Source of the DNA: Deltaproteobacteria bacterium | GTDB lineage: Bacteria; Desulfobacterota; Binatia; UBA9968 | DNA: 64,000 bases | Assembly (NCBI GenBank): GCA_016874755.1 | Contig: VGTH01000005.1 | Coordinates: forward strand, 51,547 to 115,546 | Reading direction: 5' to 3' | In this document: piece by piece, positions 5,137 to 59,955 of the stretch | Layout: each line of letters begins with the position of its first letter | Numbering within the stretch: the stretch's first letter is position 1 | The notes under the pieces: generated by a model | Told to the model about the DNA's origin: nothing | Seen by the model: the letters and a program-made list of their open reading frames with translations, nothing else | Databases searched by the model: none | Position numbers and translations under genes: made by a program

Positions 5137-5168
5137 AATCTCAGATTTCAAATTTCAGATCTCAAAGA
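5137..5168. repeat. copy of the aatctcagatttcaaatttcagatctcaaa word repeat between dnaN and the ICL/PEPM gene
   Basis: Identical 28-nt core to 59880-59907. Confidence 0.6.
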
Positions 5169-5177
5169 AGACATCTG

Positions 5178-6041
5178 CTAGCTTTTATATTTCGCATCGA
5201 GAGCGTATTTTTCATTTAATCCGACGATCGCATTAAAATCGTCAAAGGCCATCAGGCGATCCAAGATCGCCAACGTCGAGCCGTCGCGCCGCAGGGTGGT
5301 GTAAACTTCGGTCAACGATTTCGCCACTGAATAGAGTGGCGCCAGCGGCCAGACGATTAGCTCAAAGCCCAAATCTTTCAGCTCATTGGGACCCATCAGC
5401 GGGGTTACGCCGCGTTCCAGCATGTTGGCCACCAGCGGGCCGGGCACCTGGCCTGCAATCTCGCGCATTTCTTCCTTCGATTCTGGCGCTTCGATGAAAA
5501 CTGCATCGGCACCAGCGCTTTTGAAAGCGATGCCACGATCGATCGTGTCTTTTAAGCCGAGCGCCTGGCGCGCGTCGGTGCGCGCAACGATGAAGAAATC
5601 GCTGTCGCCTTTGGCTTCGACGGCGGCTTTGAGCTTTTTCAACTGTTCGTCGATTGGAATAACCTGCTTGCCCTTCATGTGGCCGCAGCGTTTTGGCCAG
5701 ACCTGATCTTCAAGAAACATGCCGGCGGCACCGGCGCGGGTGAGATCTTGCACTGTGCGGATGACATTGATGGCGTTGCCGTAGCCGGTATCGGCGTCGA
5801 CAATGACCGGGGTTTCGACAACAGAACAAATCCGCTGTGCGGCTGCCACCACCTCGGTCTGGGTAAGGAGACCAAAGTCAGGTTCGCCGAGGAGCGTCGC
5901 CGATAGGCTGTAGCCGGTGATGAAGATGACTTCAAAACCGGCGCGGGCTGCGATCTTGGCGCTCAGGGCGTCATAGACGCCTGGCATGATGAGCTGGCCT
6001 TTAGTTTCTAAAGACTGGCGAATGAGGTTCCCTTTGCCCAT
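5178..6041 (-). CDS. isocitrate lyase/PEP mutase family protein (2-methylisocitrate lyase / carboxyvinyl-carboxyphosphonate phosphorylmutase-like)
   Basis: GVYDALSAKIAARAGFEVIFITGYSLSATLLGEPDFGLL...DADTGYG...KRCGH motifs of the ICL/PEPM superfamily. Confidence 0.8.
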   Translation of the reverse strand: MGKGNLIRQSLETKGQLIMPGVYDALSAKIAARAGFEVIFITGYSLSATLLGEPDFGLLTQTEVVAAAQRICSVVETPVIVDADTGYGNAINVIRTVQDLTRAGAAGMFLEDQVWPKRCGHMKGKQVIPIDEQLKKLKAAVEAKGDSDFFIVARTDARQALGLKDTIDRGIAFKSAGADAVFIEAPESKEEMREIAGQVPGPLVANMLERGVTPLMGPNELKDLGFELIVWPLAPLYSVAKSLTEVYTTLRRDGSTLAILDRLMAFDDFNAIVGLNEKYALDAKYKS

Positions 6042-6062
6042 AACCTCTCCAAGTTGGTTCGC

Positions 6063-6428
6063 CTAACGGCGCGGTCTGCCGCCGCGATTGGGCGAGCGGC
6101 TCGGCATGGGCTCAGGCTTTGGTGCAGAACGGAGCAGCTTTGCCGAACGCAAGCCCAAGACATCGGCGCCGTAGCGGGAAGAGTCTAGATGGTCATAGCG
6201 GGCTTTAATTTTTTGCCACACTTGATGTTTTTTGATCCGATCTTCTTTGGCTGCGCTGAGGTCCTCGAGATCGAGCACGACGTCGCCTTCATGGCCGCGC
6301 AGACTCATGTGCAAAGTAAATTGCGACCCCTCGCCCTCGCGCGCCGAATAGTCGATTTTCTTGTTGATGCTCCGAATAATGTCGCGCAACAAAAGTTCTT
6401 CTTCCTGATGGACGCCTTTTCCGAACAT
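6063..6428 (-). CDS. hypothetical protein, 121 aa, Arg/Pro-rich C-terminal tail
   Basis: ORF tightly packed between the PhtD-like gene and the ICL/PEPM gene on the same strand. No recognisable motif. Confidence 0.45.
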   Translation of the reverse strand: MFGKGVHQEEELLLRDIIRSINKKIDYSAREGEGSQFTLHMSLRGHEGDVVLDLEDLSAAKEDRIKKHQVWQKIKARYDHLDSSRYGADVLGLRSAKLLRSAPKPEPMPSRSPNRGGRPRR

Positions 6429-6511
6429 AGTCTCTTCCTCCTTGCGGCACGAGCACTAGGAATTGTCGATTAGAAATGTGGCAATCTACGCTAATAGGAG
6501 CGCAAGTTCAA

Positions 6512-7477
6512 TTACGAATGCGCTTCGGTCTGCACGAAAAGCTCTGCTAAGGCCATTTTTCGACCGATCAGACCCTGTTCCTGGGAGTATTGCATCAAAG
6601 TATCCAGCGCGCGCCGATTGACGTCGCCCAGGCCATAAACCCATGGATCCGGGCCGAGGATTTCCTCCTGCTCTTCAAGAAACGAGCGGAACCAGGCGAG
6701 CGGCACGATGCGCGGGTTTTCCATGCGCCTGTAGGCGGCTTTTTTTGACGCTTCGAAGGCTTGCATTAAGTTTACCGGTACCCAGGGATATTTGTCGACG
6801 ACTTCCTGACGGATCGCGGTGGTGTGCATGATCGGGAAAAAGCCGGTGCGCTTGTAATAGTCCATCTCCAGTTCACGATAATTGGGAAAAAGTCGGGTCA
6901 CCCGTTCGTCTTTGTCGAGAATGGGCTGGATCAATTCGGGATGAACCAGCGCGTCGATTTCGCCCTCGACGAGCATTTTTTCAATGCTCTTTCCCTTCGG
7001 GATACGCTGGATTTTTAAGTCCGCCGGCGGTGTCCAGTCGACCTCTTCGTCATCCTGTTTGTACCAGTCCAAGCTGCGGTGCGGCACGCCGTGCTCGTGT
7101 TCGAGGATGCCGCGAATCCACAGGTTGGCAGTGGCTTGAAAGTTTCGCAGGCCGACTTTTTTGCCGATGAGGTCCGTCGGTTTGGTGATGCCTTTGTTGG
7201 CGTTTAAGAATATGAAACCGTGGCGGAATCGGCGGTGGAGAAAAACCGGTATCGCCGTGTAGGGCTGGCCAGTGTATTTTGCCATCAAATAATTCGACAT
7301 CGATAGCTCGGCGACGTCAAACTCGTTGTTGCGCAGCATGCGCCAGTGGCGCACGTCGGAATTCATGTCCGTCAGGACCGTCAGCTCGATGCCGTCCGGT
7401 TGGACCGTACCTTCCTTCAAAGCACGGATGCTCTCATAGTCGCCGGTGGCCAGGGTGAGGTGGATTTTTTTGCTCAT
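6512..7477 (-). CDS. 4,5-dihydroxyphthalate decarboxylase (PhtD)-like protein, NMT1 fold, cytoplasmic
   Basis: 321 aa without a signal peptide. Paralog of the gene at 60473..61465, sharing FPIMHT, ILGPDPW.YGL and EQGLI blocks. Family assignment is from memory of PhtD-like proteins. Confidence 0.65.
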   Translation of the reverse strand: MSKKIHLTLATGDYESIRALKEGTVQPDGIELTVLTDMNSDVRHWRMLRNNEFDVAELSMSNYLMAKYTGQPYTAIPVFLHRRFRHGFIFLNANKGITKPTDLIGKKVGLRNFQATANLWIRGILEHEHGVPHRSLDWYKQDDEEVDWTPPADLKIQRIPKGKSIEKMLVEGEIDALVHPELIQPILDKDERVTRLFPNYRELEMDYYKRTGFFPIMHTTAIRQEVVDKYPWVPVNLMQAFEASKKAAYRRMENPRIVPLAWFRSFLEEQEEILGPDPWVYGLGDVNRRALDTLMQYSQEQGLIGRKMALAELFVQTEAHS

Positions 7478-7589
7478 GGGGCCTAATTAGCACGCCCGTC
7501 GAATGTTGCCAACCAGTTGATTTCACAGTTTGAATTGCTACCTTGCGACTTCGCGACTTCGTGCGTAGCGCACAACTGAAGGAGTCGGG

Positions 7590-7815
7590 ATGAACAAATC
7601 GTCGCTCAAGATCGCATTGCTGATAGCCCTCCTGCTAGGGGCTGGCCGAGCAAGCAGGGCTATTTAAGAAGCACGGCTTGGATGTAGAGCTGCTGCACAT
7701 CGCGTCGAGCTCGCGGGGTATCCAAGCGATCCTCGCTGGCGAGATCGCCTTTTCCTACATGGATGGCGCAAATCTTGCGGTTTGTCGCAGAGCTAGAGAA
7801 GCAGGGGTTTTTTAA
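7590..7815 (+). pseudogene. decayed NMT1/SsuA-like substrate-binding protein gene (signal peptide fragment plus frameshifted internal fragment)
   Basis: ATG 7590 gives MNKSSLKIALLIALLLGAGRASRAI then a stop. A +1-shifted frame from 7666 gives KKHGLDVELLHIASSSRGIQAILAGEIAFSYMDG..., which matches the LKKHNIDLEVILITGGPVAMQALLA block of the intact paralog at 53218..54165. Confidence 0.5.
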
Positions 7816-7906
7816 GGGCGCGAAATAAGAAAGGGCGACCAACCGGTCGCCCCTGCGAATCCCATATCGGCGTAGATGGGTTAGCGAAGCGTAACCCAAC
7901 GTTCTA

Positions 7907-8617
7907 CTAGCGAAGTTTTTTCGCGCGCCGTACGAAATAATCCCACATCGATCCTAGACGATGCGGTGTGTAGATCTGCTCGTACTTGAGCACCGCTTCT
8001 TCGTCGCTGCTCCAGGACGGCTCGCCGGAGGCGGTGGCGATAAGTTGGATGCGCGCCGCCTTCTCCAAGAAAATCGCGTAGAGCGTCGCGACCTCGATGG
8101 TCGGGCCCACGACGGTTGAGCCGTGGTTCTTCATCAGCACACCGCGACAGCTGCCGAGGCTTTTTGCCACTTCCACACCTAACTCCTTGGTGCGAATGAG
8201 TTGGGTTGTGAGATCGAACAACGGCAGGCCGTCGTGAAAGATGCTGCCCTCGTGACTGACGGGGCGCAACCGCTGGCGAAGCGAGCCGAACGCCGTCGCG
8301 TAGGGCGGATGCGAATGCACCACGCAGTTGACATCCGGCCGCGCCAGCATGATCTCGGTGTGAATGAAAACTTCCGAGTGGCGCTCGTATTTGCCTTCGA
8401 GTTTTTTGCCGTCTTCCATGTCGACGACGATGATATGCTGCGGGCGGATTTCTTCGAAGCCGAAGCTATGCGGCTTCATGAGAATCTTTTTCTCACCGGG
8501 TATGCGAACCGAGACGTGGCCGAGAATGTTGTCCCAGTGACCCTCGTTGGCGAGGATGTTGCACGAGTAAGCGAGTTTTTCTTTGAGTTCTTTGATTGTA
8601 TTGGCTTTGTTGGCCAT
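7907..8617 (-). CDS. class II aldolase/adducin family protein
   Basis: NCVVHSHPPYATAF and MKNHGSTVVGPTIEVA are typical of L-fuculose-phosphate aldolase-like class II aldolases. Confidence 0.85.
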   Translation of the reverse strand: MANKANTIKELKEKLAYSCNILANEGHWDNILGHVSVRIPGEKKILMKPHSFGFEEIRPQHIIVVDMEDGKKLEGKYERHSEVFIHTEIMLARPDVNCVVHSHPPYATAFGSLRQRLRPVSHEGSIFHDGLPLFDLTTQLIRTKELGVEVAKSLGSCRGVLMKNHGSTVVGPTIEVATLYAIFLEKAARIQLIATASGEPSWSSDEEAVLKYEQIYTPHRLGSMWDYFVRRAKKLR

Positions 8618-8633
8618 GGTTTCTCCCTAGTGC

Positions 8634-8703
8634 GAGTCGAGGATAGAAGATCGAGGATTGAGGATCGAATGCTATCCTCCATCTTCTATCCTCTATCCTG
8701 AGC
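8634..8703. repeat. large imperfect hairpin with reiterated GAGGAT words between the CoA-ligase and aldolase genes
   Basis: gaggatagaagatcgaggat ...15 nt... atcctccatcttctatcctc is a 19/20 inverted repeat; gaggat occurs four times. Confidence 0.6.
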
Positions 8704-10261
8704 TTTTGCTTCTTAAGCGGAATCTCTGAATCTTACCTGTAACCGTCTTCGGCAGGTCGTCGACGAACTCAACCCAACGCGGATACTTATAGGGCTGGAG
8801 TTTCGCTTTGACGTGGTTTTGCAATTCAATGCGCAACTGGTCGCTGGCTTTAAACTCGCTCTTGAGCAGCACGAAAGCTTTCGGCTTGAGCAGGCCGTCG
8901 GAGTCGGTGTCGCCGATGACGCCGGACTCCAAAACTGCCGGATGTTCCATCAAGATGTTTTCAATTTCAATCGGCGAGACCCACAGGCCGCCGACCTTCA
9001 TCATGTCGTCGGAGCGGCCGCAGTACCAATAGTAGCCCTCGGCATCTCGGTAGTAGGTGTCGCCGGTCTTGAGCCACTCGCCCTGCATCATGCGTTTGGT
9101 CTGCTCGTGTTTGTTCCAATAATAAACCGCGTTGGCGTCGCCTTTGACCAGCAAGTTGCCGGTTTCACCCACCGGGACTTCGCGACCGTCGTCGTCGACG
9201 ATCTTGGCTTCGAAGGCTGGCGTCACTTCGCCGCTGCTGCCGGCTTTGGCTCGGCCCGGTCGGTTGGCCAAGAAATCGTGGGTCGCTTCGGTGGAGCCGA
9301 CGACGTCGAGTAATTCCAAGCCGGTTTTTTCTTTCCATTGGTGGAATAGAGCCGGCGGCAGCGGTTCGCCGGAGGACAGGCAGATGCGCAGCGAGCTCAT
9401 GTCGTATTTTTTTTTGATGCGGAGAAACCTGGCAAACAGCGTTGGTACTGAAAAAAAGAAGGTCGGTTTATACTTGTCGATGACCTGAAGAATTTTTTCC
9501 GGATCGGGCTTTTCCGGCCAAAGTACTGTCGAAGCACCGAAGCGGAAGGGGAAGTACAAAGAATTCCCCAAGCCGTAGGAGAAAAACATCTTTGATGCCG
9601 AAAAGCACAGGTCGTTCTCGTTCATGCTCAACACTGGCTTCACAAACAGATCGCTGATGTTGATCATGTCGTGCTGCAGGTGCACGGCACCCTTCGGGCT
9701 GCCGGTGCTGCCGGACGTATAGCCCCAGAAGCAGACATCGTCTTTGGTGGTCTTCGCGGCTTCGAGCTTGTCCGAGCTTTGGGCGATCAGCTTCTCATAC
9801 GATAGCGCCTTACCCATGGGCGTGCCGACGACGACGATGTGTTTTAAGAATGGCGTGTTGTCCCAGATCTTCTCGATCTCAGGCAGCGTCGACTCGTGCA
9901 CGACAATGGCGCGAGCGCGGCTGTCGTTGATCAGATATTCGTAATCCTTGGCGAACATCCAAGGATTGGTCGGCACGGCGACGGCGCCGATCTTGATGGC
10001 GCCGAAGAAGGTGTAAGCAAATTCCGGCGAATCCGGCAGAATCACCAGCACGCGGTTTTCGATCTCGATGCCAAGATCTTTCAGCGCATTGCCGGTGCGG
10101 TTAACGTTGGCAAAAACTTGTTGATAGGTGATCTTCTGGTCTTGGTAGTAGATGGCGACTTTGCCGCCACGCCCCTGTTTGATGTTTTCATCAACAAAGG
10201 TCGTGGCGGCGTTGTAGATGTCGGGTAAATCGACGTTCATCCTAATGATTTCAGATTCCAA
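8693..10261 (-). CDS. benzoate-CoA ligase family AMP-forming acyl-CoA synthetase
   Basis: YTSGSTGSPKGAVH, GEWLKTGDTYYRD and the C-terminus PYKYPRWVEFVDDLPKTVTGKIQRFRLR closely resemble BadA/BclA-type ligases. True start could be the internal MNVDLPDIYN. Confidence 0.9.
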   Translation of the reverse strand: MESEIIRMNVDLPDIYNAATTFVDENIKQGRGGKVAIYYQDQKITYQQVFANVNRTGNALKDLGIEIENRVLVILPDSPEFAYTFFGAIKIGAVAVPTNPWMFAKDYEYLINDSRARAIVVHESTLPEIEKIWDNTPFLKHIVVVGTPMGKALSYEKLIAQSSDKLEAAKTTKDDVCFWGYTSGSTGSPKGAVHLQHDMINISDLFVKPVLSMNENDLCFSASKMFFSYGLGNSLYFPFRFGASTVLWPEKPDPEKILQVIDKYKPTFFFSVPTLFARFLRIKKKYDMSSLRICLSSGEPLPPALFHQWKEKTGLELLDVVGSTEATHDFLANRPGRAKAGSSGEVTPAFEAKIVDDDGREVPVGETGNLLVKGDANAVYYWNKHEQTKRMMQGEWLKTGDTYYRDAEGYYWYCGRSDDMMKVGGLWVSPIEIENILMEHPAVLESGVIGDTDSDGLLKPKAFVLLKSEFKASDQLRIELQNHVKAKLQPYKYPRWVEFVDDLPKTVTGKIQRFRLRSKSSG

Positions 10262-10295
10262 ATTATCTGGAATCTTGAATCTGTAATTTGGAATG
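10245..10295. repeat. related AT-rich palindromic word repeat between the ALDH and CoA-ligase genes
   Basis: gatttcagattccaaattatctggaatcttgaatctgtaatttggaat contains nested inverted repeats (ttccaaatta / taatttggaa; cagattc / gaatctg). Confidence 0.55.
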
Positions 10296-10308
10296 GCGCC
10301 GCAGGCGC

Positions 10309-15035: not shown

Positions 15036-15081
15036 GAAGGCAAGAGGCAGCAGGCAACAGACAATAGGTTAGGAGAGTTTC

Positions 15082-22868: not shown

Positions 22869-22964
22869 GAAAGGATAACTCACCAAGTAGATACGAAGAG
22901 CAAGAAGTTCGGATGTCCGTCGTGTCTTTGCCGCGAACAGTGCTTTCGGCCACTGGAGAAACCC

Positions 22965-25797: not shown

Positions 25798-25850
25798 AAG
25801 AAAAAGATACATAGTCACCACGAAGGACACGAAGATCACGAAGTTCGGAT

Positions 25851-25885
25851 GTAGGGGCGAAATATTTTTCGCCCTTCCTTCGTGC
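25851..25885 (+). terminator. intrinsic terminator carrying the conserved GTAGGGGCG hairpin
   Basis: gtaggggcgaaatatttttcgccc then ttccttcg, preceded by the shared word acgaagatcacgaagttcggatgt. Confidence 0.55.
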
Positions 25886-25921
25886 GCTGCGTGGTGAAAT
25901 GGGATTTATTAGTTCTCTCGC

Positions 25922-29354: not shown

Positions 29355-29549
29355 GGCGATCGAGGTGGAACTCTGGAGGAGCGAAGGCAACAGGGCATCG
29401 CGTAAACGCCGCGATGTAGGGGCGACCGGCGGTCGCCCTCTTTTGCGACCTAGCGATGCAAGAATCGAAGATGAATTCCAAGCAGCGGCAAACGAAACGA
29501 AAGTTTCGCGCTGATGCCTTCGCTCCTCCAGAGTTCCACCTCGATCGCC
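29355..29549. repeat. MITE-like element: perfect 35-bp terminal inverted repeats around a 125-bp core
   Basis: ggcgatcgaggtggaactctggaggagcgaaggca (29355-29389) is the exact reverse complement of 29515-29549. The core contains a GTAGGGGCG terminator hairpin (29416-29448). Confidence 0.75.
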
Positions 29550-31179: not shown

Positions 31180-31207
31180 GTAGTGACAGGTCGCGACCTG
31201 TCACTAC
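31180..31207. promoter_or_regulatory. perfect 28-nt palindrome immediately after the third SBP gene
   Basis: gtagtgacaggtc gc gacctgtcactac with no U-tract. Could be an operator or a bidirectional hairpin. Confidence 0.5.
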
Positions 31208-31326
31208 ACGCGCTCGTAGGATGGGTTGAGCGTCAGCGATACCCATCACCCAACCGCGTCTCGAAAGAGAAGCATGACATTGGGGTCAACACGGCGTAGG
31301 GGCGCAATTCATTGCGCCCGCCCGAC

Positions 31327-33073: not shown

Positions 33074-33089
33074 CGTTTCACGTGAAACA
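33074..33089. promoter_or_regulatory. parS centromere site
   Basis: cGTTTCACGTGAAACa matches the TGTTTCACGTGAAACA consensus across the full 14-bp palindromic core. Confidence 0.85.
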
Positions 33090-33107: not shown

Positions 33108-34988
33108 TTAAGCGCTCTTGCGCCGGGTCAAATGCACTGATAGCAGCGATATCGCCGCGGGTGTAACGCCCGAAATACGTGAGGCTTGGCCCAGTGAGCG
33201 TGGCCGGATGCGGGTGAGTTTCTCGCACACCTCTCGCGATAGCCCGCTGATCTGCGAGTAGTCGAAATCTTCTGGAACTCGCACATGCTCCATTTTTTGG
33301 AATCGCTGCACGATTTCCACTTGGCGGTCGACGTAGCCTTCGTATTTTGTGCTGAGCTCGACCTGAGCATCGGCGTCAGCTGAGAAGCTCGGCATGTCCG
33401 GAGCCAGGCGGCGGAGCTGATTCAGGCTAACTTCGGGTCGGCGCAGTAGCTGCGCCAGTGAGCAATGGTTCTTCAGTGGCGCTGTGCCGAGCTCCGTAAG
33501 CAGCGCATTGACTTCGCTGGTCGGAGTCACCTGCCGACTTTGCAGGAATGCATTGAGCTGGTCGATCGCATTTTTCTTATCTACGACCCGGATATTTCGT
33601 TTGCTATTCGCAAGGCCGATCCGATGACCTATTTCAGTGAGTCGCAAGTCGGCATTGTCCTCGCGCAACAATAGGCGATACTCGGCTCGTGAAGTAAACA
33701 TTCTATAGGGTTCGCTATCCGTGCCCTTGGTCACCAAGTCGTCGACTAGCACGCCGAGGTAAGCTTGGTCGCGGGAGAAGACGATGGGCTCTTGGCCGCG
33801 CAGGCTCAAGACAGCGTTTATCGCTGCAATCAATCCCTGAGCCGCTGCTTCCTCGTAGCCGGTGGTTCCGTTGATCTGTCCCGCATGGTAAAGCCCGCGC
33901 ACCAGCTTGGTTTCGAGCGACGGATGGAGCTGGGTCGGCTCGACGTAGTCGTATTCGATGGCGTAGCCCGGACGCATGATCTCGGCGTTTTCGAGTCCTT
34001 CGATCGAATGAACCATCTCGAGTTGCACATCTAGGGGTAGACTTGTCGACAAACCATTGGGATATACCTCGACAGTGTCGAGTCCCTCCGGCTCTAAGAA
34101 TATCTGGTGGCGGCTCTTATCGGCGAAGCGATGGATCTTGTCTTCGATCGACGGGCAGTAGCGCGGCCCACGGCTCTTGATGATTCCGGAATACATGGGC
34201 GAGCGATGCAGTGCGGCCCGTATCACTTCGTGGGTGCGTTCATTGGTATAAGTTATGTGGCAAGGCACCTGGCGCTGGGTGACACCGTTGCTCAAGAAAG
34301 AAAATGGCATCGGCGGATCGTCGCCGGGTTGGACTTGGAGATTTGAATAATCGATAGTGCGCGCATCGAGGCGTGGGCAGGTGCCGGTCTTGAGACGACC
34401 TACTTTGAAGCCGAGCGCAACCAGTGACTCGCTCAAACCTTGCACAGCGAAGTCGCCGGCACGACCAGCGGAATAGTTAGTCTCCCCGATATGGATCAGC
34501 CCTTTAAGAAAAGTACCAGTGGTGAGGATGACGCGTCGGCCGTAGAACTTCTCACCGATCTGAGTTTCGACGCCCTTGACTTCGCCGTTCTCTACTAGCA
34601 GTTTCTCTGCACTACCTTGGCGCAGGGTTAGTCCAGGGCAGTTTTCCAAAACACGCTTCATGCGCAACCTGTAAAGAGCCTTATCAGCCTGCGCTCTTGA
34701 GGCACGGACCGCTGGGCCTTTGCGGGTATTGAGCATGCGAAACTGAATACCGGTTTCGTCAATTGCCAAACCCATCTCGCCGCCCAGGGCGTCAATCTCT
34801 TTCACCAGGTGGCCTTTTCCAATGCCACCGATGGCTGGGTTGCAGGACATCTGGCCAATGTGGTCCAGATTCAAAGTAAGCATCAGCGCGTCGCAGCCCA
34901 TGCGAGACACAGCCAAGCAGGCTTCGATGCCGGCATGGCCGGCGCCGACGACTATCACCTCGAAAATCTTGTTCTGTCTCGTGCTCAT
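33108..34988 (-). CDS. mnmG: tRNA uridine 5-carboxymethylaminomethyl modification enzyme MnmG (GidA)
   Basis: [21 protein letters not shown] motif, 626 aa, MnmG C-terminal domain. Confidence 0.96.
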
Positions 34989-35004
34989 TGTTTCACGTGA
35001 AACG
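34989..35004. promoter_or_regulatory. second parS site
   Basis: TGTTTCACGTGAAACg, 15 of 16 to consensus, overlapping the mnmG start codon region. Confidence 0.85.
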
Positions 35005-38480: not shown

Positions 38481-38516
38481 CGAAAAAACCAAGGGCGTGA
38501 TGAATCACGCCCCTAC
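38481..38516 (-). terminator. intrinsic terminator with GTAGGGGCG hairpin after the MR/MLE-family gene
   Basis: Minus strand reads gtaggggcgtgattcatcacgccc ttggttttttcg. Confidence 0.7.
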
Positions 38517-38565
38517 AAAATCCGAACTTTGCCCTCTTGCGCCTCTGCGCGAGATAATCCGAAAA

Positions 38566-39726: not shown

Positions 39727-39758
39727 AGAGATTACTTTTTCGGATTCGGATTATGTAA

Positions 39759-39910
39759 CCGCAAAGAACGCAGAGAACGCAAAGAAATACAAAATTCGCG
39801 ATGACCATTACCGCTTGACCAGCTCTCAACGTATCTTATTGTGAGTGGTAAAATCCCCCAAGTCCGAGCGCGCGCAGCGCGCCTTTGTGTTCTTTGCGTT
39901 GCGGTTAAAT
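39759..39910. repeat. left repeat blocks flanking the cupin gene (3 x 9-bp CGCARAGAA iterons plus a second degenerate block)
   Basis: cgcaaagaa cgcagagaa cgcaaagaa at 39759-39790. Related block ...tgtgttctttgcgttgcggttaaat at 39869-39910. Confidence 0.65.
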
Positions 39911-39920
39911 TCTCCGGTTC

Positions 39921-40387: not shown

Positions 40388-40486
40388 TATCTTTGCGTTC
40401 TCTGCGTACTTTGCGGTTAAATGGTGCGTTTCACAATCTGGGCGCGCAGCGCCTTTTGTGCTTCCTTGTGCTCTTTGTGGTTTCCC
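40388..40486. repeat. right repeat blocks flanking the cupin gene
   Basis: tatctttgcgttctctgcgtactttgcgg (40388-40417) is the inverted copy of the left iteron block. 40441-40486 (gcgcgcagcgccttttgtgcttccttgtgctctttgtgg) is a direct copy of 39869-39910. Confidence 0.65.
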
Positions 40487-45212: not shown

Positions 45213-45349
45213 ATGAGCTACAACGGATATACCGTCATCGACGCTCACCACATGCTAAACCGGTAGCCGCTATGGCCCGTCGCCCCCGCGTATTTGCTCC
45301 AGGATTGCTCTATCACGTCATCGTCCGCGGCAATCAGCGGGGAACATAG
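45213..45349 (+). mobile_element. remnants: amidohydrolase-2 N-terminal fragment followed by an IS200/RAYT-like transposase N-terminal fragment
   Basis: 45213-45263 MSYNGYTVIDAHHMLNR* (compare MARNGYKIFDADTHV). 45272-45349 MARRPRVFAPGLLYHVIVRGNQRGT*, the hallmark start of IS200-like/REP-associated tyrosine transposases. Confidence 0.45.
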
Positions 45350-46560: not shown

Positions 46561-46707
46561 AAGAAAGTATTAAACGCGGAAAATGGAAAGCGGAAATTCG
46601 CGGGTTCTGACGGGCGACTTTTCCGTTTTCCGGGTTTCTGCTTTCCGCTTTTTGTTTGGCCAGTGTTAACGATCATGGGTATCAACTTACTGATTGGGAG
46701 GTAATTC

Positions 46708-49342: not shown

Positions 49343-49371
49343 ACGTGTCGGTCTGCTTGCGGCTGTGAAAG

Positions 49372-53201: not shown

Positions 53202-53217
53202 GATGGACTCCGCTGTG

Positions 53218-54165
53218 CTACGGCAAGAAAGTCAAATCGATCACTTGCTGCGGTGTAACGTTCTTGGCCTTGGGATTTTCTTTGGCTAACTCGTCTATCG
53301 CGAGCTGGATGCCTTTCAATGTAGGTTTGCCATCGTCGGGGAAAGCGCGCGCGCGGTAATTGTAATCGGCTTCCGCTAGGGCGCGATCGTCGGTGCGAAT
53401 CGCTTTCATGGTTTCCTTGATGGCGTCGTTGCGGTTGCTTTTGTAGAGGCGCACTGACTCCACATAGGCACGCAGGAAACGGCGCACCGCGTCGGGATGA
53501 CTCTTCAACAAATCACCGCGAGCGACGACGCCGGTCATTTGGTAGTCGATCTCTTTTTCGGCGAAGTCGAGCATGGGAAATAAACCGGATTTCTTGGCGA
53601 CATGGCTCACGCCCGAGATCAGCGATGTGCCGTCGATGCTGCCGGCTTGCAGTGCATTGATGCGGCCGGCCGAGCCGCCGCCTTGAATGAACTTAACGTC
53701 GCTCTTCGGATTTAAGCCGAACTGTTCCAACGCCATGCGCGTCGCTAGCTCGTCGGTGCTGCCGTAGCGGGTAATGCCCAAGGTCCGGCCTTTCAGTTGC
53801 GCCGGTGAGGTGATGTGCGGCCGGGTAAAAAACGTGTAAGGAAAACGATTGTTGACACCGCCGATGATTTTGACGTCGGCGCCTTCAACAAAGCCGTGGA
53901 GAAACACCGTGGCGCTGGTGGTGACGATGTCGAGGCTTTTCGCCAACAACGCCTGCATGGCGACCGGGCCGCCGGTGATCAAAATGACTTCCAAATCGAT
54001 GTTGTGTTTCTTGAGAACACCCGCTTCTTTGGCGAGGGCAAAGGCGACTTTCTCGGTGCTGGTGGCCGCGGTGGAGGCGAGACGAATCTTGATGGCTTGG
54101 GTCTGGGCCGCCACCGATTGCGGCAGCGAAAACGCGAGACAGGCAACGATAAGGGCAAAAAATTT
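53218..54165 (-). CDS. NMT1-like periplasmic substrate-binding protein (start at GTG giving MKFFALIVACLAF...)
   Basis: Signal peptide plus LKKHNIDLEVILITGGPVAMQALLA. gaaaggag RBS 9 nt before the GTG. Confidence 0.78.
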   Translation of the reverse strand, partial: KFFALIVACLAFSLPQSVAAQTQAIKIRLASTAATSTEKVAFALAKEAGVLKKHNIDLEVILITGGPVAMQALLAKSLDIVTTSATVFLHGFVEGADVKIIGGVNNRFPYTFFTRPHITSPAQLKGRTLGITRYGSTDELATRMALEQFGLNPKSDVKFIQGGGSAGRINALQAGSIDGTSLISGVSHVAKKSGLFPMLDFAEKEIDYQMTGVVARGDLLKSHPDAVRRFLRAYVESVRLYKSNRNDAIKETMKAIRTDDRALAEADYNYRARAFPDDGKPTLKGIQLAIDELAKENPKAKNVTPQQVIDLTFLP

Positions 54166-54275
54166 CACTTCGATGAAACTCCTTTCGATTGAGTCAGATA
54201 TGCCAAATGAACCGCCAAACGCAAGCAAGATCGACATTGCTTTGGACGCAGCAATTGCAGTATCGTGCGGCCACT

Positions 54276-54956
54276 ATGGAAACCAAAATCTTCACATGGC
54301 TAGGGCGCGAGTTTGTCGAAATCGTCGGCGAGGCAGGCTTAGGCGGGTCGACAGAGCAAGCGACCGCGGAGCTTTTCGCCAAGTTCGACAAATCTTTGCA
54401 AGGGCTCGGTCTGTCGCTCGACAACACTGTGCGCATCCGGGTCTTTGGCCGCGATCGCCAAGCGCGCACCGACGCGACGCTGGCGCGCTCGAAAGTGCTC
54501 AGCCGCCAACGGCGCGCCGCGAGCTCCAGTTTTATTTCTCAGCCATGGTTCGATTCCGCCGGTTCCGGCGGATTGGAGTTGCTCGCGCTGCGGCCATTGA
54601 ACGCCAGCTCGGGACGCAATCCGATCGACTTCGCGCTGGCGCGGAATTATTTGTGCTATCTGGAATACGACTCTGTGTTGTTTTTCTCCGGCTTTACGTC
54701 GGAGGCCGCAACGCTGGAGCGGCAGGTCAAAGACGTGCTCGGCACGTTGGACGACGCCTTCGCGCGCGCCAAGACCGATTGGAGTAAAGTCGCTAAGCTT
54801 TCAATGCTGGTCCAGCGCGGCCATTCCATCGACACGGTCAAAGCTGTGCTAGCCGGCGCCGGGCCATTGAGCGTGCCAGCGCTGGAATTCACTTTTGTCG
54901 ACGGCTTTGCCGGCGAGAAATATCTGATTGAAATCGAAGCGACGGCGTTGAAATGA
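54276..54956 (+). CDS. tandem RidA/YjgF-like (endoribonuclease L-PSP fold) protein
   Basis: Two halves each ending in RidA-like blocks (TVRIRVFGRD... and KYLIEIEATA). Confidence 0.55.
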   Translation: METKIFTWLGREFVEIVGEAGLGGSTEQATAELFAKFDKSLQGLGLSLDNTVRIRVFGRDRQARTDATLARSKVLSRQRRAASSSFISQPWFDSAGSGGLELLALRPLNASSGRNPIDFALARNYLCYLEYDSVLFFSGFTSEAATLERQVKDVLGTLDDAFARAKTDWSKVAKLSMLVQRGHSIDTVKAVLAGAGPLSVPALEFTFVDGFAGEKYLIEIEATALK

Positions 54957-54984
54957 AAAGGGGCGCGATAAATCGCGCCCCTAC
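54956..54984 (-). terminator. intrinsic terminator with GTAGGGGCG hairpin for the minus-strand amidohydrolase gene
   Basis: Minus strand gtaggggcgcgatttatcgcgcccctttt. Confidence 0.65.
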
Positions 54985-55110
54985 GCTGTCATGCTGAGCG
55001 ACGCGAAGCATCTGCTTTTCTGCACGGCGCGATCGGCAGATTCTTCACCTTTGGCTCAGAATGATAGTTGTGGGGGTGAGTAATAATTGGACGGCATTGA
55101 AGTCCAATCG

Positions 55111-56562
55111 CTACTTCATCCGAAAACTCGGCGGCACGACTTCGTCGATGGCTTTGCCGGTCCAGTGCCACTTCGCCACGCTGTCCCAGACCTGCTCGCC
55201 TTTGGCTTGCACTTTTTCTAGCAGCGCTTGTTCGTCGAGACGCACATACTTGCCGTTGTCGACCAAGGTGTCGCCGTCGACAATCACCGTGCGCACATCG
55301 CGGCTGACGGCGGTTTCCATCAGCGAGCGGATCGGATCGCGCACGGCGCCGAAGGCCATCGTGTTAAGATTCACAATCGCGATATCCGCCTTCGCGCCTT
55401 TGGACAGTCTGCCTAGGTCGTCGCGGCCCATCATCTTGGCGCCGCCCAAGGTGATTGAGTTGAAAACGTCGCGCGGGTGGCCGGCCATGAAACTCTTGTC
55501 GGCGACGCGCGAAGCGATGGCCGCGTAGCGCATGTCGGACAGAATATCTTTCGGAAACGTGTCGGTGCCGATGCCCATGTTGATGCCGGCCAGACGGTAG
55601 CGATCGAAGGATTCCATTAGGATGCCAAGTTTCAAATATTTTAGCGGGCTGTAAGCCACCGACGCGCCGGAGTCGGCGATGATCTTGATATCGTCGCCGT
55701 AGGGATACGAAAGCCAGCTGTGACCGCTGACAAAGATGCAATGCGACAGCGAGACGTCGGGCGAGAGAAAGCCGATCTTTTTTAAAAGCTCGATGGGTGT
55801 GCAGCGTTCGCGCTGCATGACCGTGTGAAATTCAAACAAGTTGATGGTCGCGTGAATCTGGATACCGACGCCGGCATCTTTGGCGGCCTTCTTGGTGTCT
55901 TTCAAAAGCTCCGGGGTGCAGGAGTCGACGTGGCCCGGAAACAACATCGCGCTCATGCGGCCGCTGCAGGCGCCGTGATATTTTTCTGCAAACTCGGTGG
56001 CGGTTTGCAGTCCTTTGCTGCCGCGCTCGTCGTTCCAGTCGTACTCCAAGCGGCCTTGCTTATCGTGGAAGAACGAAACGTTTTTGTAGCTCGGCCCGGC
56101 GACGCAACGGATGCCGACTTCGTCGATCATATCGACGTAGCGCGCCGGCTCGCCGCCGGCACCACCGATATCGAAGGTGGTCGTTACGCCGCTCTTGAGC
56201 ACATGAATAATCGAAAAGCGCTGACCGATATCGACGTCTTTTAAATGAGCCGAGTGCGCTCCTTCGCGAGTCGGCCCGCCGTGGGCCAGATAGTTGGATG
56301 CAAAAAAATCAGTCTTGGTGGAGTCGGCGAGAATATAGTCGCTGGCGTTGATGCCGGAGTGAAAATGGGTGTCGATGAAGCCCGGCGACACCAGACAGCC
56401 CTTGGCATCGATCTTCTTGTCGACCGGTTGCGAGTAATCCTTGCCGACAAACTCGATGCGGTTGCCGTCGTACACCACCACGCCGTTTTTGATCACTTCA
56501 TGTTCTTTGCCGTCGAAGCCGACGACCCAGCCGCCCTGGATGAGAGTCTTCATTGCGCGCAC
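55111..56562 (-). CDS. amidohydrolase family protein (cytosine/guanine deaminase / chlorohydrolase-like)
   Basis: LVSPGFIDTHFHSG metal-binding HxH and a 483 aa amidohydro_1 architecture. Confidence 0.88.
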   Translation of the reverse strand: MRAMKTLIQGGWVVGFDGKEHEVIKNGVVVYDGNRIEFVGKDYSQPVDKKIDAKGCLVSPGFIDTHFHSGINASDYILADSTKTDFFASNYLAHGGPTREGAHSAHLKDVDIGQRFSIIHVLKSGVTTTFDIGGAGGEPARYVDMIDEVGIRCVAGPSYKNVSFFHDKQGRLEYDWNDERGSKGLQTATEFAEKYHGACSGRMSAMLFPGHVDSCTPELLKDTKKAAKDAGVGIQIHATINLFEFHTVMQRERCTPIELLKKIGFLSPDVSLSHCIFVSGHSWLSYPYGDDIKIIADSGASVAYSPLKYLKLGILMESFDRYRLAGINMGIGTDTFPKDILSDMRYAAIASRVADKSFMAGHPRDVFNSITLGGAKMMGRDDLGRLSKGAKADIAIVNLNTMAFGAVRDPIRSLMETAVSRDVRTVIVDGDTLVDNGKYVRLDEQALLEKVQAKGEQVWDSVAKWHWTGKAIDEVVPPSFRMK

Positions 56563-56846
56563 CTTTCGAAGCTTGTTTTGAAACCAGCCGCAGGACTAAC
56601 AAAAGCTCAAAGGTAAGACAAGGACTTGGATGAAGCCCATCGGAGCTAGCGCAATTCGCTGCCTCAGAGATCTTTGAGAAAGGCTGCCACCTACAGGTCG
56701 ACTCGTCACTTCATTTTCGGGAATGTTGAATTTCTTCACCACGGCGCGCGATAGGCGCTCAAATCGCCGGCGCGGGTGACACCCAGGGCTTTGCCCTTGA
56801 GAGGCCGGCACGACATTCTATGGGGAATGGAACGGCGGCGATCTAA

Positions 56847-56886
56847 GGAAAGGAAAACTACCGGGGGCGGTGCGACCGGCCCCCGG
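56847..56886 (-). terminator. intrinsic terminator after the 144-aa hypothetical gene
   Basis: Minus strand ccgggggccggtcgcaccgcccccgg followed by tagttttcctttcc. Confidence 0.6.
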
Positions 56887-56910
56887 AGAGGTTGGAGTTG
56901 GAAAAACGGT

Positions 56911-57345
56911 TTAGCTCGCTATACGCTCTTCGAAAGCGGCTTCTTTCCAGCGCAGCAGGCCCTGGCGCAGGTAATCCGACTCAAAGCCCAACAGCTCGCA
57001 GACGTTTTCGAAAGCGTAGAGATAGGATTTGTCGTCGTTCGAAATCCACTCCTCAGCTTCGATGAAAAGGCTTTGCTTCTTCTTGCTGGTAGCAAAAAGA
57101 TTTTCTTGATAGCAGATCACCGCGTCTTGCAGCACGGCGAGCAGCAGAGTCCGCTCGGGGTCGAGGTGAAACTTCCGCTCGTAGGTGGAGAAAAATTGCG
57201 CCGCGCTCAAAATGTCCGGTTGAAACACCGACAAGGCCTTCTCTTCATGCACGCCATGGGAAGGGCTCAAACCTTTGACCCAGTAGGGCGACCGACCTTT
57301 GCTGTTATCCGGCTTGCGCGCCTCAACAGGTTTTTTGATGATCAT
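56911..57345 (-). CDS. hypothetical protein, 144 aa
   Basis: Clean ORF with its own terminator; the overlapping plus-strand ORF is Arg-rich shadow. No family recognised. Confidence 0.5.
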   Translation of the reverse strand: MIIKKPVEARKPDNSKGRSPYWVKGLSPSHGVHEEKALSVFQPDILSAAQFFSTYERKFHLDPERTLLLAVLQDAVICYQENLFATSKKKQSLFIEAEEWISNDDKSYLYAFENVCELLGFESDYLRQGLLRWKEAAFEERIAS

Positions 57346-57933
57346 GAAATACCTCCCTAACGTTAGACGCCGATGATCTCACATGGTTCCCCGGTACAAT
57401 GCTCCCAGGGAAATTTCTTTGGGGACAAGGTCGAGGTTTGCAGGGCCAACCCATTTTAGGGTCGCCGACTTTTCGACTAATACAACTTCGTGAATGACGA
57501 GAACGAAACCAAGGAGCTCAGAGCAAAAGGATCGACTGCAGCATGTGTAACGAAACCTTGGGTGCCCGGTTGTGACTTATAAGTGCCTGCGCCATCGGCA
57601 CTGGATATCGTTGACAATAAACCCAACCGCGATCCGCATCGTTGTGCCCTGAGCTAGGTAGATTTCCCGCCGGTAGCTGCCACAGCGAACCGTCCAACCG
57701 ATCGTGCACGCGCGCTGGTGCGTCGTAAAGCGCGAGACGCGCCATCACGCTCTGAGCGTCGCCCGACAAGGGCGACTCATGCGCGACACTTACAGCAACG
57801 GCCCCAAGGACGAAGAAAAACAGGATTATAAGGGCAGCCAGCGATTTATGGAGGCGGGTGATCTTCACCGAATCGTGGCGGCACCATATCACGGCTGGGG
57901 TGAATGTCAAGGAAAACCAAGCCTAAAATAGAG

Positions 57934-58236
57934 CTAGATCCAGCGCGAAAAAGCCGGGCCGAGGCGCACCGCCATGAGTCCGAGGACCACTTGCAGACCG
58001 ATGTTGGCCAAGGCGCCGACCAAGCGCGAGTCGCGCATTAGGGTCGTGGTCTCGAACGCGAACGCAGAGAACGTGGTGAAGCCACCGAGGACGCCAATGA
58101 AGAAAAACAGGCGCAGCTCCTGGACGAAAAACCGCCTGTGCTCGGCGATGCCGGCGAGCAAGCCGAAGCAGCCATCCAATAGCGCAGCACCGAACCGAGA
58201 AAACCCCCCGGCGCTAACGAGCAGTGCAGCCATCAT
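57934..58236 (-). CDS. crcB: fluoride ion channel CrcB/FluC (short form)
   Basis: GGFTTFSAFAFE... signature and four hydrophobic helices. 100 aa. Confidence 0.65.
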   Translation of the reverse strand: MMAALLVSAGGFSRFGAALLDGCFGLLAGIAEHRRFFVQELRLFFFIGVLGGFTTFSAFAFETTTLMRDSRLVGALANIGLQVVLGLMAVRLGPAFSRWI

Positions 58237-58239
58237 TCT

Positions 58240-58320
58240 TAGCTTGATTCTCCAATCGGGTAGATCGCACCGACGCTATTGGATTGGGCGGCTGATTTCA
58301 ATCCGCCGGATTTCCGTTTG
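58240..58320 (-). ncRNA. candidate fluoride (crcB-motif) riboswitch in the crcB leader
   Basis: Minus strand GGCGGAUUGAAAUCAGCCGCC CAAUCC...GCGAUCUACC loosely follows the GGCGAUGG..CGCC..AAAC..GAUG..CUAC architecture. Not a strict consensus match. Confidence 0.3.
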
Positions 58321-58352
58321 ACCGCCGCGGGTAAGATGGTAAAGTACGCCCC

Positions 58353-59525
58353 ATGCCGTTAGCTACGATTGAAGAAGCGATCGACGAGATCCGTCGCGGC
58401 CGCATGGTCATCTTAATGGATGACAAAGATCGCGAGAACGAGGGCGATCTGTGCCTGGCCGCTGAAGCAACCACGCCCGAAGCGATCAATTTCATGGCAA
58501 CCTACGGGCGCGGCTTGATCTGCTTGCCGCTCACCGAAGAGCGGGTGCGTTACCTCGGTATTTCGATGATGGTCTCGGAAAACACCTCGCCCTTCGGCAC
58601 GGCGTTTACGGTTTCCGTCGATTCATCATCCGGCATCACGACGGGCATCTCTGCCGCCGACCGGGCCAAGACGATTCTCGACGCCATTGCCGAAGACGCC
58701 AAACCGTCGGATCTCGTCACACCCGGCCATATCTTTCCGCTGCGCGCGCGCAACGGCGGCGTGCTGGTGCGCGCCGGGCAAACCGAAGGGTCGGTGGACT
58801 TGGCGCGCTTGGCCGGACTTAAGCCGGCGGGGGTGATTTGCGAGATCATGAAAGACGACGGCACGATGGCGCGCCAACCCGACCTGATGAAATTTGCCCG
58901 CAAGCATAAGCTCAAAGTCTGTACCATCGCCGACTTGATCCAATATCGTTTGCAGTACGACTCTCTGGTTTATCGCGCTGCCAGCGCGCCGCTGCCAACG
59001 CGGGTCGGCGGCCAATTTCAAGCGATCATCTACAACACTCATGTAGACAACAGCGAACATCTTGCCCTGGTGAAAGGTGAGATTTCGCCAAAGGAAGAGA
59101 CCATCGTCAGGGTCCACACCAAATATGTTCCCGGCGATGTCTTTGGCTTCGCGCTGCTCAACACCGGCCGAGTCATCGAGCGTTCGATGGAGATCATCGA
59201 GCGCGCCGGCAAAGGCGTGATTCTTTACTTGCAGCCCGAGCAGAAGGGTGTCCATCCGGCGATGGTGGCGTACCCACGGGTGGAAGCGAAACATCGCAAG
59301 GAGATGAATCGCTCGTTCGTCTATCAAGCCGACTTCAAAGAATACGGCATCGGCGCGCAGATCCTGCGCGACCTCGGCGTGCGCAAGATGCGCCTATTGA
59401 CCAACAACAAAAAACACTTGGTCGGCCTGCGCGGCTACGGTCTGGAAGTCACGGCACTGGAGCCGATTCCGCGCGAGCACCCGGTGCGCGATGAGGGTAA
59501 GAAAAGCAAAGCGAAAAGCGCTTAG
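58353..59525 (+). CDS. ribBA: 3,4-dihydroxy-2-butanone-4-phosphate synthase with degenerate C-terminal GTP cyclohydrolase II domain
   Basis: N-terminal RibB: [25 protein letters not shown]-terminal RibA-like domain reads [20 protein letters not shown] where RVHSECLTGD..SLRCDCG is expected, so the zinc-binding Cys are absent. Confidence 0.9.
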
Positions 59526-59540
59526 CCGAAACGGCATTGC

Positions 59541-59645
59541 AGATTACAAATTCCAAATTCCAGATTGTTCGCGACCGCGGGGCTTAATTTGAAATCTTGA
59601 ATTTGGAATTCGTAATTCCGAGCGAAGCGAGGACCAGCGAGGACA
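59541..59645. repeat. AT-rich palindromic word repeat (attacaaattccaaattccagatt / inverted copy) ending in attccgagcgaagcgagga
   Basis: 24-bp imperfect inverted repeat (59544-59567 versus 59593-59616). Related copy at 59866-59955. Both flank the FmdB-like gene. Confidence 0.65.
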
Positions 59646-59646
59646 A

Positions 59647-59862
59647 ATGCCGATCTTCGAATACAATTGCAGCGATTGCGAGCATCACTTCGAAACTATC
59701 GTGCTGTCGACGCGGGAAAAGATCAGTTGCCCCAAATGCGACAGCCGATCCGTGAGAAAGCAGCTGTTAGTTTTTAGCTCACCAGCCTCGGGCAAGGAAG
59801 CTAGCGCCGCGCCATCTGGCGGGGGCTGTGGCTGTACACCGTCCAGCTGCGGCTGCCACTAA
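59647..59862 (+). CDS. FmdB-family zinc-ribbon putative regulatory protein
   Basis: MPIFEYNCSDCEHHFE...CPKCDS CxxC..CxxC ribbon and a Cys/Gly/Ser-rich tail. Confidence 0.7.
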   Translation: MPIFEYNCSDCEHHFETIVLSTREKISCPKCDSRSVRKQLLVFSSPASGKEASAAPSGGGCGCTPSSCGCH

Positions 59863-59865
59863 TCG

Positions 59866-59955
59866 AAGCGAATTTCAAATCTCAGATTTCAGATCTCAAA
59901 CTCGGATTTTTGTCCGCATGTTTGAGATTCCGAGCTCAGCGAGGACTCTGCGGAT
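59866..59955. repeat. second copy of the AT-rich word repeat (aatttcaaatctcagatttcagatctcaaa) ending in attccgagctcagcgagga
   Basis: Shares the tctcagatttcaaatttcagatctcaaa word with 5137-5168 and shares related word motifs with 10245-10295. Confidence 0.65.

Follow-up and report, generated by a model that had tools for sequence, protein, structure and literature searches.

Heptanucleotide repeats have been known since 2007 as the over-represented class of long simple-sequence repeats (SSRs) in many bacteria, and the STRR sequences of cyanobacteria were reportedly described by Mazel and colleagues in 1990. Here we analyze a 64-kb stretch of genomic DNA from an uncultured Binatia-like bacterium (contig VGTH01000005.1, positions 51,547 to 115,546; hereafter the window, numbered from its first letter), in which AT-rich heptamer arrays occupy four intergenic spacers. 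Elements of this kind have already been described, and this lineage was previously without a report of them. As of 2015 the literature noted no detailed work on heptanucleotide repeats (PMC4692102); in that year Rehm et al. described GGGAATC repeats in Xanthomonas and GGGGA(C/T)T repeats in Nostoc (PMC4692102). The Xanthomonas (GGGANTN)n arrays number about 186, mostly of 4 units and mostly intergenic; in 70-75 cases two convergent arrays form inverted repeats, and 83% of the repeats retain their gene context between two species (PMC4692102). Beggiatoaceae, cyanobacteria, and Bacteroidetes have TAACTGA repeats (MacGregor 2015, PMC4679880), and cyanobacterial heptanucleotide repeats have been reported for Calothrix (cited in PMC4692102). 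The excess of heptamers has been ascribed to polymerase slippage, with no established function offered (PMC4679880, PMC4692102).

The arrays of the window resemble those of Xanthomonas and Nostoc in their heterogeneous units with fixed and variable positions, their length of about 4 units, their dispersed and mostly intergenic location, their many convergent inverted-repeat pairs, and the variation of their length and sequence between close relatives. They differ in their AT-rich unit, for which G-quadruplexes are not possible, in their host, an uncultured Binatia-like bacterium, and in the presence of several unit families, 9-mers among them; moreover, whereas context is largely retained in Xanthomonas, in relatives whose proteins are about 88% identical the elements of orthologous spacers are mostly gone or replaced. 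With the STRR and TAACTGA repeats, which number hundreds of intergenic sets per genome, they have in common tandem heptanucleotides in 2-6 units, a patchy occurrence across phyla, and a suspected post-transcriptional role. TAACTGA sets are almost all direct repeats (one inverted set has been reported) concentrated just upstream of start codons; here, in contrast, three of the four loci hold inverted pairs, and they lie just after stop codons.

There are further likenesses to repetitive extragenic palindromic (REP) sequences, bacterial interspersed mosaic elements (BIMEs), and the REP doublets known as REPINs, all of which are extragenic imperfect palindromes of tens of nucleotides with two inverted halves, lie between convergent or co-directional genes, are individually dispensable, and are gained or lost between relatives. 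The elements described here differ from these in that their stems are made of tandem 7-nt units and their copies are far less uniform; a second family in the window, the GTAGGGGCG hairpins, fits the REP pattern better. With about even confidence, we read the heptamer elements as REP/BIME-like structured repeats built from heptanucleotide SSRs, which would act as dispensable hairpins at transcript ends or between cistrons. To the known class the analysis adds arrays in an uncultured Binatia-like lineage, occurrence in many phyla, an inverted partner for about one quarter of sampled arrays, and the gain, loss, and movement of modules. At the level of the window the result is descriptive, and no gene function is altered by it.

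Heptamer arrays in four intergenic spacers

A sequence-only reading of the window had reported AT-rich repeated words at four places, and these are indeed present, intergenic and near gene ends. The words are tandem arrays of 3-4.5 degenerate heptamers, as called with Tandem Repeats Finder and cross-checked by a lag-7 self-similarity scan, which concurs. This 7-nt periodicity, absent from the sequence-only reading, places the elements with the heptanucleotide repeats already described. Period 7 or 14 is reported at 5137-5166, 10265-10294, 59543-59566, and 59872-59898, and arrays are found in exactly four intergenic spacers of the window: 5137-5166 (array A), 10247-10294 (element B), 59540-59619 (element C), and 59869-59927 (element D). 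In one register the unit is RATYNCA, with A2, T3, C6, and A7 fixed and R1, Y4, and N5 variable; the units are RATYTCA after dnaN and after a zinc-ribbon gene, and RATTMCA after ribBA. The arrays have a GC content of about 25-35%, in a window that measures 56% rather than the 60% assumed for the genome by the sequence-only reading.

In the window the two-unit pattern CARATYNCARATYNCA has 6 exact matches and 10 with at most one mismatch, against 0.00 and 0.31 expected from shuffled sequence; every match lies inside the four spacers and none in coding sequence. The sequence covered for the source genome as a whole is the window and 7.5 kb more, about 72 kb. The observation is real and well beyond chance: these are degenerate heptanucleotide repeat arrays, mostly arranged as hairpins. 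All sites are near gene ends, between convergent genes or within one operon, in short spacers after stop codons. In three of the four an inverted array follows, giving imperfect hairpins, and the nested inverted repeats that had been proposed are borne out at 59543-59566/59593-59616, where 24 nt with 92% complementarity make up the window's longest close inverted repeat, and at 10247-10263/10265-10281, but not after dnaN, where the array is single-armed. RATYNCA arrays accordingly occur singly or in inverted pairs that enclose a short GC-rich core, and the paired form, 50-110 nt long, can fold: elements B, C, and D, like the elements on other units described below, can form the hairpin of an extragenic palindrome, and array A does not. 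The window contains no match to Rfam 15 at or above the gathering score and none in a tRNA and tmRNA scan. CRISPR-like arrays were rejected, as the units are contiguous, with no spacers between them.

Array A (5137-5166, plus strand) comprises 4.3 heptamers (AATCTCA GATTTCA AATTTCA GATCTCA AA) and lies in a 60-nt spacer that separates dnaN (stop at 5117) from a convergent phosphoenolpyruvate (PEP) mutase-family gene (stop at 5178). Directly 3' of the dnaN stop is a small GC stem-loop, CCGCGCTTTGCGG (5120-5132, plus strand), followed by TTCGGAAT and then the array, which has no inverted partner and folds no better than shuffles (z -0.7 and -1.6; z-scores here and below compare RNA folding with that of shuffled sequences). 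The sequence-only reading had the same 28-nt word recurring after dnaN and after the zinc-ribbon gene. The two copies are not identical: the 26-mer at 5141 has 3 mismatches to 59875-59900, or, in another alignment, TCTCAGATTT-CAAATTT-CAGATCTCAAA (5139-5166) equals TCTCAGATTTCAGATCTCAAA (59880-59900) except for a one-heptamer indel, and these best-matching copies, in A and D, are exactly one heptamer apart, CAAATTT being missing from the second. A public short-read contig, SRR16108669_296981 (locus L006), ends at window position 5141, in the first bases of array A; this single case fits an assembly break at a multi-copy repeat, and such repeats may fragment short-read assemblies.

Element B (10247-10294, minus strand) is a hairpin of inverted heptamer arrays, GATTTCAGATTCCAAAT and ATCTGGAATCTTGAATCTGTAATTTGGAAT, in the 68-nt spacer from the stop of an aldehyde dehydrogenase gene (10309) to the start of an AMP-ligase gene (10240), both on the minus strand and in the same operon. 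Its RNA fold of -22.8 kcal/mol has a z-score of -4.7, with none of 200 shuffles equally stable. A GC-rich stem-loop on the minus strand, GCGCCTGCGGCGCC (10295-10308), stands directly after the dehydrogenase stop and abuts the element.

Element C lies on the plus strand between ribBA and a gene for a 71-aa Zn_ribbon_8 (FmdB-like) protein, as an inverted pair around a core. Its 5' arm (59540-59566; CAGATTA CAAATTC CAAATTC CAGATT) begins 15 nt past the ribBA stop codon; the GC-rich core GTTCGCGACCGCGGGGCTT (59567-59585, 19 nt) has a small internal stem; and the 3' arm AATTTGAAATCTTGAATTTGGAATTCGTAATTCC (59586-59619), an inverted T-rich array, forms a stem of about 22 bp with the 5' arm (z -2.3). 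Element D, also on the plus strand, lies between the zinc-ribbon gene and a convergent 174-aa open reading frame (ORF) for which Pfam gave no match. It begins 7 nt past the zinc-ribbon stop with a 5' arm at 59869-59901 (CGAATTT CAAATCT CAGATTT CAGATCT CAAAC), followed at 59902-59927 by the core TCGGATTTTTGTCCGC and a truncated 3' arm, ATGTTTGAGA, with a 10-bp stem in RNA folding. The same 3' arm is full length in L256, one of the relatives' loci (L247-251 on the dnaN side, L252-264 on the ribBA side), and the window is 17 nt short there.

Both C and D end in a common 20-nt tail, ATTCCGAGCNNAGCGAGGAC, with 18 of 20 positions equal. Its copies, ATTCCGAGCGAAGCGAGGAC (59615-59634, plus strand) and ATTCCGAGCTCAGCGAGGAC (59927-59946, plus strand, overlapping the last codons and stop of the minus-strand ORF 59936-60460), are the only two in the window and bracket the Zn_ribbon_8 gene (59647-59862), as the sequence-only reading had described. 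The tail is absent from every fetched locus of other genomes, and the C and D tails are closer to each other than to their own L256 orthologues, which suggests local duplication or conversion. The notion of a local duplication is apt for this purely local tail and does not extend to the array family. Tail copy 1 overlaps a 10-nt tandem duplication, AGCGAGGACC in 1.9 copies (59626-59644, reading AGCGAGGACC AGCGAGGAC), just 5' of the zinc-ribbon start codon and containing two Shine-Dalgarno-like GAGGA motifs; the relative L252 has a single copy of the 10-nt unit.

Turnover of the elements among relatives

NCBI lists the closest homologues of the AMP-ligase (87-91% identity) as Candidatus Binatia or Binatus. 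JGI metagenome 3300020193 and several sequencing runs contain contigs with 100% identity to the window; since these other assemblies of the source genome are identical, no population polymorphism in unit number is seen. Relatives with proteins about 88% identical share the gene order of the window on the dnaN side (aldehyde dehydrogenase, ligase, aldolase ... PEP mutase, dnaN, dnaA), yet the contents of the spacers differ among them. Unrelated GC hairpins occupy the spacers of L247-249, the site of element B is taken in L250 by a degenerate RATTNCA hairpin, and none of L247-251 has array A. In L251 a homologue of the GAGGATA-type element of the window (see below), with 20 of 21 nt identical in one arm, lies between the dehydrogenase and ligase genes, one spacer over from its position in the window, between ligase and aldolase in the same operon.

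On the ribBA side, the site of element C carries a full hairpin in the window, with TTCC/TTAC units in both arms, and a hairpin with TCTC/TTTC units in both arms and a 5-nt loop in L256-259 (RibBA 94% identical). Relatives L252-255 (RibBA also 94%) have no element there, the sequence reading TAG CGAGGAAT ATG; L264 (RibBA 87%) has one arm and the tail only; and in L260-263 (RibBA 88%) the element is absent from an unrelated 32-nt spacer. The spacer between ribBA and the zinc-ribbon gene measures 121 nt in the window, about 92 nt in L256-259, and 8 nt in L252-255. At the site of element D, where the window has the 5' arm, core, and truncated 3' arm, the hairpin is full length in L256-259, represented by a decayed array in L252-255, and absent from both L264, where the convergent genes abut, and L260-263, where they overlap. 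Orthologous arrays differ by unit indels; because repeated units make the alignment register of the C arms ambiguous between the window and L256, the unit change per arm is stated here qualitatively. Judged from these orthologous spacers, the elements are gained, lost, truncated, and remodelled as whole modules at roughly genus-level divergence.

Such behavior invites the explanation that these are non-autonomous mobile elements similar to MITEs (miniature transposable elements with inverted repeats) or REPINs, with a transposase encoded elsewhere, the hairpin as its recognition structure, and any effect on genes incidental; we consider this unlikely. The presence/absence polymorphism between close relatives (C absent in L252-255 and L260, D absent in L260 and L264), the GAGGATA-type family in different spacers of the window and L251, the intergenic location, the length of 50-110 nt with the hairpin geometry of a REP doublet, the GTAG-headed REP-like hairpins in the window (5 copies against 0.26 expected), and a 25-aa open reading frame with a likeness to the N terminus of REP-associated tyrosine transposases (RAYTs) all speak for it. 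Comparison of the filled ribBA/zinc-ribbon site (window, L256) with the empty one (L252) shows, against it, no target-site duplication, and the AGCGAGGAC duplication lies wholly on one side of element C. The suggestion of small MITEs in the sequence-only reading was partly apt, as to behavior only, but defined terminal inverted repeats are lacking along with the target-site duplication: the inverted arrays are the whole element, with ragged, copy-variable ends. The heptamer arrays also lack a GTAG head, which in the window is found only on the GTAGGGGCG hairpins; the window encodes no transposase, including any RAYT, and Pfam gave none for the 25-aa fragment, described below. Finally, the copies diverge in unit number and sequence far beyond what recent transposition would leave, and the unit families differ between loci.

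Distribution of the unit family

A scan with a three-unit pattern of a metagenome collection and of species-representative genomes, from each of which at least 120 matches were listed, found RATYNCA unit-family arrays on at least 240 unrelated contigs from many phyla; proportions in these samples are indicative only, the order of the listed matches being unknown. By record title, the species-representative matches listed include about 31 from Acidobacteriota, 23 from Bacteroidota, 18 from Planctomycetota, 12 from Proteobacteria, and 9 from Chloroflexota, with others from Patescibacteria, Verrucomicrobiota, Cyanobacteria, and further groups; the matches listed include none from the window's own genome or metagenome. 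The GC content of contigs with arrays runs from 0.25 to 0.68. The sequence-only reading had allowed that, if only the copies it saw existed, a local duplication would be the better account; with arrays in four spacers of the window, in the orthologous spacer of L256-259, and on these contigs, its dispersed-family reading stands.

Inverted partners (ungapped, at least 15 of 18 positions complementary, within 150 nt) accompany 25 of 100 metagenome arrays and 3 of 100 in a reversed-sequence control; this complementarity test supersedes an earlier strict two-unit regular expression, which gave only 13 partners. Across the full set of 237 sampled arrays, 47 partners are downstream and 17 upstream of the CA-type array. 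Of the other tandem repeats on carrier contigs, those with period 7 (with 14 and 21) are by far the most common, and tandem repeats at the metagenome loci number 107 with period 7, 29 with period 8, and 46 with period 9, which indicates that carriers of the RATYNCA family in general abound in heptamer repeats, on many different units. At six loci (L010, L035, L048, L052, L057, L093) RATYNCA arrays adjoin arrays of other heptamers (GCAGTAA, ACTGACT, CGAAGAC, GTCACTC, GTCTCCT), and those of L010 are nested, an outer inverted pair enclosing an inner one. Gene context in the collections was taken from crude longest-ORF calls; spacers with arrays are convergent or divergent in a ratio of 29:12, a modest excess over the background of 158:168.

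Heptamer-array hairpins could be one cross-phylum class of intergenic elements, confined to a limited RATYNCA vocabulary of units and with a shared maker or reader, though we rate this as decidedly improbable. The maker or reader might be an enzyme or an RNA- or DNA-binding protein, acting in a 7-nt register, by which the arrays are copied, extended, or recognized. Among the matches listed, Acidobacteriota, Planctomycetota, and Bacteroidota are richest, and arrays are present in Binatia-like genomes as well. Were it true, the same AT-rich unit at 25-68% GC would reflect function or horizontal spread rather than chance slippage.

A further explanation, which we regard as very unlikely, starts from a suggestion of the sequence-only reading and takes the arrays as putative binding sites, one protomer per 7 nt, for a nucleoid-associated protein, a regulator, or a cold-shock-domain protein on single-stranded heptamers. 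The strict 7-nt register, with A2, T3, C6, and A7 conserved and R1, Y4, and N5 variable, resembles iterated sites; the unit family is found in distant phyla, even in genomes of 65-68% GC; and binding of cold-shock proteins to heptamer repeats has been speculated upon (PMC4679880). The positions, however, are not conserved at orthologous spacers, the arrays of the window follow stop codons rather than occupying promoters or divergent promoter regions, and no candidate protein was identified. Several unit families of the same build coexist in the genome, so this explanation would need several proteins.

That the arrays are replication-origin elements, whether iterons or DnaA-related repeats, is suggested by the location of A and B 1.4-6.5 kb from the dnaA-dnaN spacer, with DnaA boxes clustered nearby, but has almost nothing in its favor overall. 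The boxes are at 2376-2407 and 3802-3836, away from the arrays; elements C and D are 55 kb distant; relatives with the same dnaN/PEP-mutase junction lack array A; and the carrier contigs listed, at least 240, show no link to dnaA. Identity with iterons or DnaA boxes is effectively refuted by the box positions and the absence of array A from relatives. The DnaA-box clusters themselves (TTATCCACA and one-mismatch variants) stand upstream of dnaA and in the 39% GC dnaA-dnaN spacer, likely the oriC region.

Sibling elements on other units

RATYNCA arrays are one unit family among several with this build in the genome, and they belong to the described class of intergenic heptanucleotide SSRs. Elsewhere in the genome the same build occurs on the units GAGGATA, CGGAAAA, CACGAAGNN, and CGCAAAGAA. 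The GAGGATA-type element (8637-8699, minus strand) has an array, an 8-nt core, and an inverted CTATCCT array, lies between the AMP-ligase stop and the aldolase start, and folds at -35 kcal/mol (z -3.9). A CGGAAAA-like element (46575-46652, plus strand; z -2.4) follows an NMT1-family gene and consists of an array, a GC core, and an inverted TTTTCCG array, then a T-run; in its layout it looks like an intrinsic terminator. Two elements have 9-nt units: one at 25815-25897 (plus strand; z -5.1) reads three copies of CACGAAGNN, the linker AGTTCGGAT, a REP-like hairpin GTAGGGGCG..CGCCC, and an inverted array, and the other, at 39758-39911 (no strand assigned), has three copies of CGCAAAGAA (39760-39786) with an inverted copy about 100 nt off and a related CTTTGCGTA array in the next spacer (40391-40415). 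In each of the seven paired elements of the window an A- or purine-rich arm precedes a T- or pyrimidine-rich one, an order that for an inverted pair is identical on either strand.

Possible origin and role of the elements

In our favored reading as REP/BIME-like structured repeats, slipped-strand mispairing would change unit number and sequence, the likeness of the arms would be kept by templated copying between them or by selection for pairing, and whole modules would be copied to or deleted from spacers in the manner of REPs and BIMEs. Less certain steps would follow: the elements may be transcribed with their flanking genes, the paired ones would then fold as RNA into hairpins whose 5' arm is A-rich and whose 3' arm is T-rich, and these hairpins could bring about bidirectional termination and/or shield upstream mRNA from 3' exonucleases, while remaining dispensable. 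A probable role at transcript ends or between cistrons would fit the position directly after stop codons, the order of A-rich arm, GC core, and T-rich arm, the T-run of the 46575 element, and the excess of convergent spacers. If the arrays do shape transcript ends, they matter for annotating operons and 3' untranslated regions in metagenome-assembled genomes.

Bidirectional intrinsic terminators offer the nearest functional likeness, since they too present an A-rich arm, a GC core, and a T-rich arm on both strands; A and D lie between convergent genes, and the 46575 element ends in a T-run. Unlike such terminators, most of the elements here have no GC-rich stem directly followed by a U-run, and B and the 8637 element are inside an operon, 7-20 nt from the next start codon. 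A terminator consensus scan flags only the small core of element C (59568-59581).

Several results weigh against our reading. A U-run after the stem is absent from B, C, and the 8637 element, and hairpins mostly without one are not canonical intrinsic terminators. Array A and an array at 15038 are single-armed and do not fold. The orthologous spacers of L250 fold no better than shuffles (z +1.2 and +1.4), and structure that is not always kept in relatives' spacers is dispensable. About 150 kb of sequence from relatives contains the strict two-unit pattern at one site only, and for element C deletion in the relatives is as parsimonious as insertion. In the collections, arrays in co-directional spacers are closer to the upstream stop codon in 39 cases and to the downstream start codon in 46, with no preference for the stop side, and about one third of sampled arrays fall inside the crude ORF calls, although many such placements are unreliable because the CA strand of the units has no stop codons. 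With neither a target-site duplication nor a transposase found, a dedicated mechanism of spread stays hypothetical.

A rival account takes the arrays as a neutral mutational by-product: heptamer SSRs would arise and decay by polymerase slippage, with about 7 nt favored by the replisome, have neither function nor mobility, and acquire inverted partners through template switching at quasi-palindromes. We hold this to be possible but doubtful. Heptamers are the over-represented class of long SSRs in many bacteria, and slippage is the published explanation (PMC4679880, PMC4692102); a one-unit indel separates the two best-matching copies; turnover is quick, with decayed arrays in relatives (element D in L252, element B in L250); the elements are dispensable; and arrays in the collections have no clear positional preference. 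Slippage alone, however, accounts neither for the presence of a 110-nt two-armed module, flanked by a stop codon and a ribosome-binding site, at a place where 8 nt stand in a close relative, nor for the position of the same hairpin family in different spacers of two genomes, nor for inverted pairing about 8-fold over the control, nor for the biased arm order, and these count against the neutral account.

REP-like hairpins and other features of the window

GC-rich hairpins headed by GTAGGGGCG, on the pattern GTAGGGGCG-loop-CGCCCC(TAC), number five in the window where 0.26 are expected, and all are intergenic (25851-25859, 29416-29424, and 31296-31304 on the plus strand; 38508-38516 and 54976-54984 on the minus strand). 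They constitute a REP-like family with the classic GTAG head, and the 38508 copy, together with its T-run, looks like a terminator. The linker AGTTCGGAT occurs exactly three times (22906-22914 and 25842-25850 on the plus strand, 38520-38528 on the minus strand), each time as the link between a short tandem array and a hairpin, either of GTAGGGGCG type or degenerate. Related TCGGAT, TCGGAAT, and ATTCCGA motifs stand at outer array ends near 5133, 59615, and 59927, with such motifs also in element D's core (about 59902-59907). The linker and these TCGGAT-type motifs hint at what may be composite, BIME-like modules.

A perfect 28-bp palindrome, GTAGTGACAGGTCGCGACCTGTCACTAC, lies at 31180-31207, 3 nt past the end (31177) of a gene; the palindrome has a GTAG head and 100% complementarity. 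A 25-aa ORF, MARRPRVFAPGLLYHVIVRGNQRGT (45272-45349, plus strand), sits in a 269-nt spacer and may be a truncated remnant of a RAYT, from its likeness to the N terminus of that family; Pfam gave no match for so short a fragment.

The 71-aa Zn_ribbon_8 gene between elements C and D is conserved downstream of ribBA in five lineages (window, 59647-59862, plus strand; L252, 7720-7932; L256, 11266-11478; L260, 4212-4421; L264, 11243-11452), which indicates a genuine gene. Public gene calls omit it on all five contigs, and the exact protein is not on record. Lastly, a perfect 14-nt palindrome, GTTTCACGTGAAAC, occurs twice in the window (33075-33088 and 34990-35003) against 0.01 expected, with one copy in each spacer flanking a 626-aa gene (33108-34988), and the two are candidate operator sites for a dimeric regulator.

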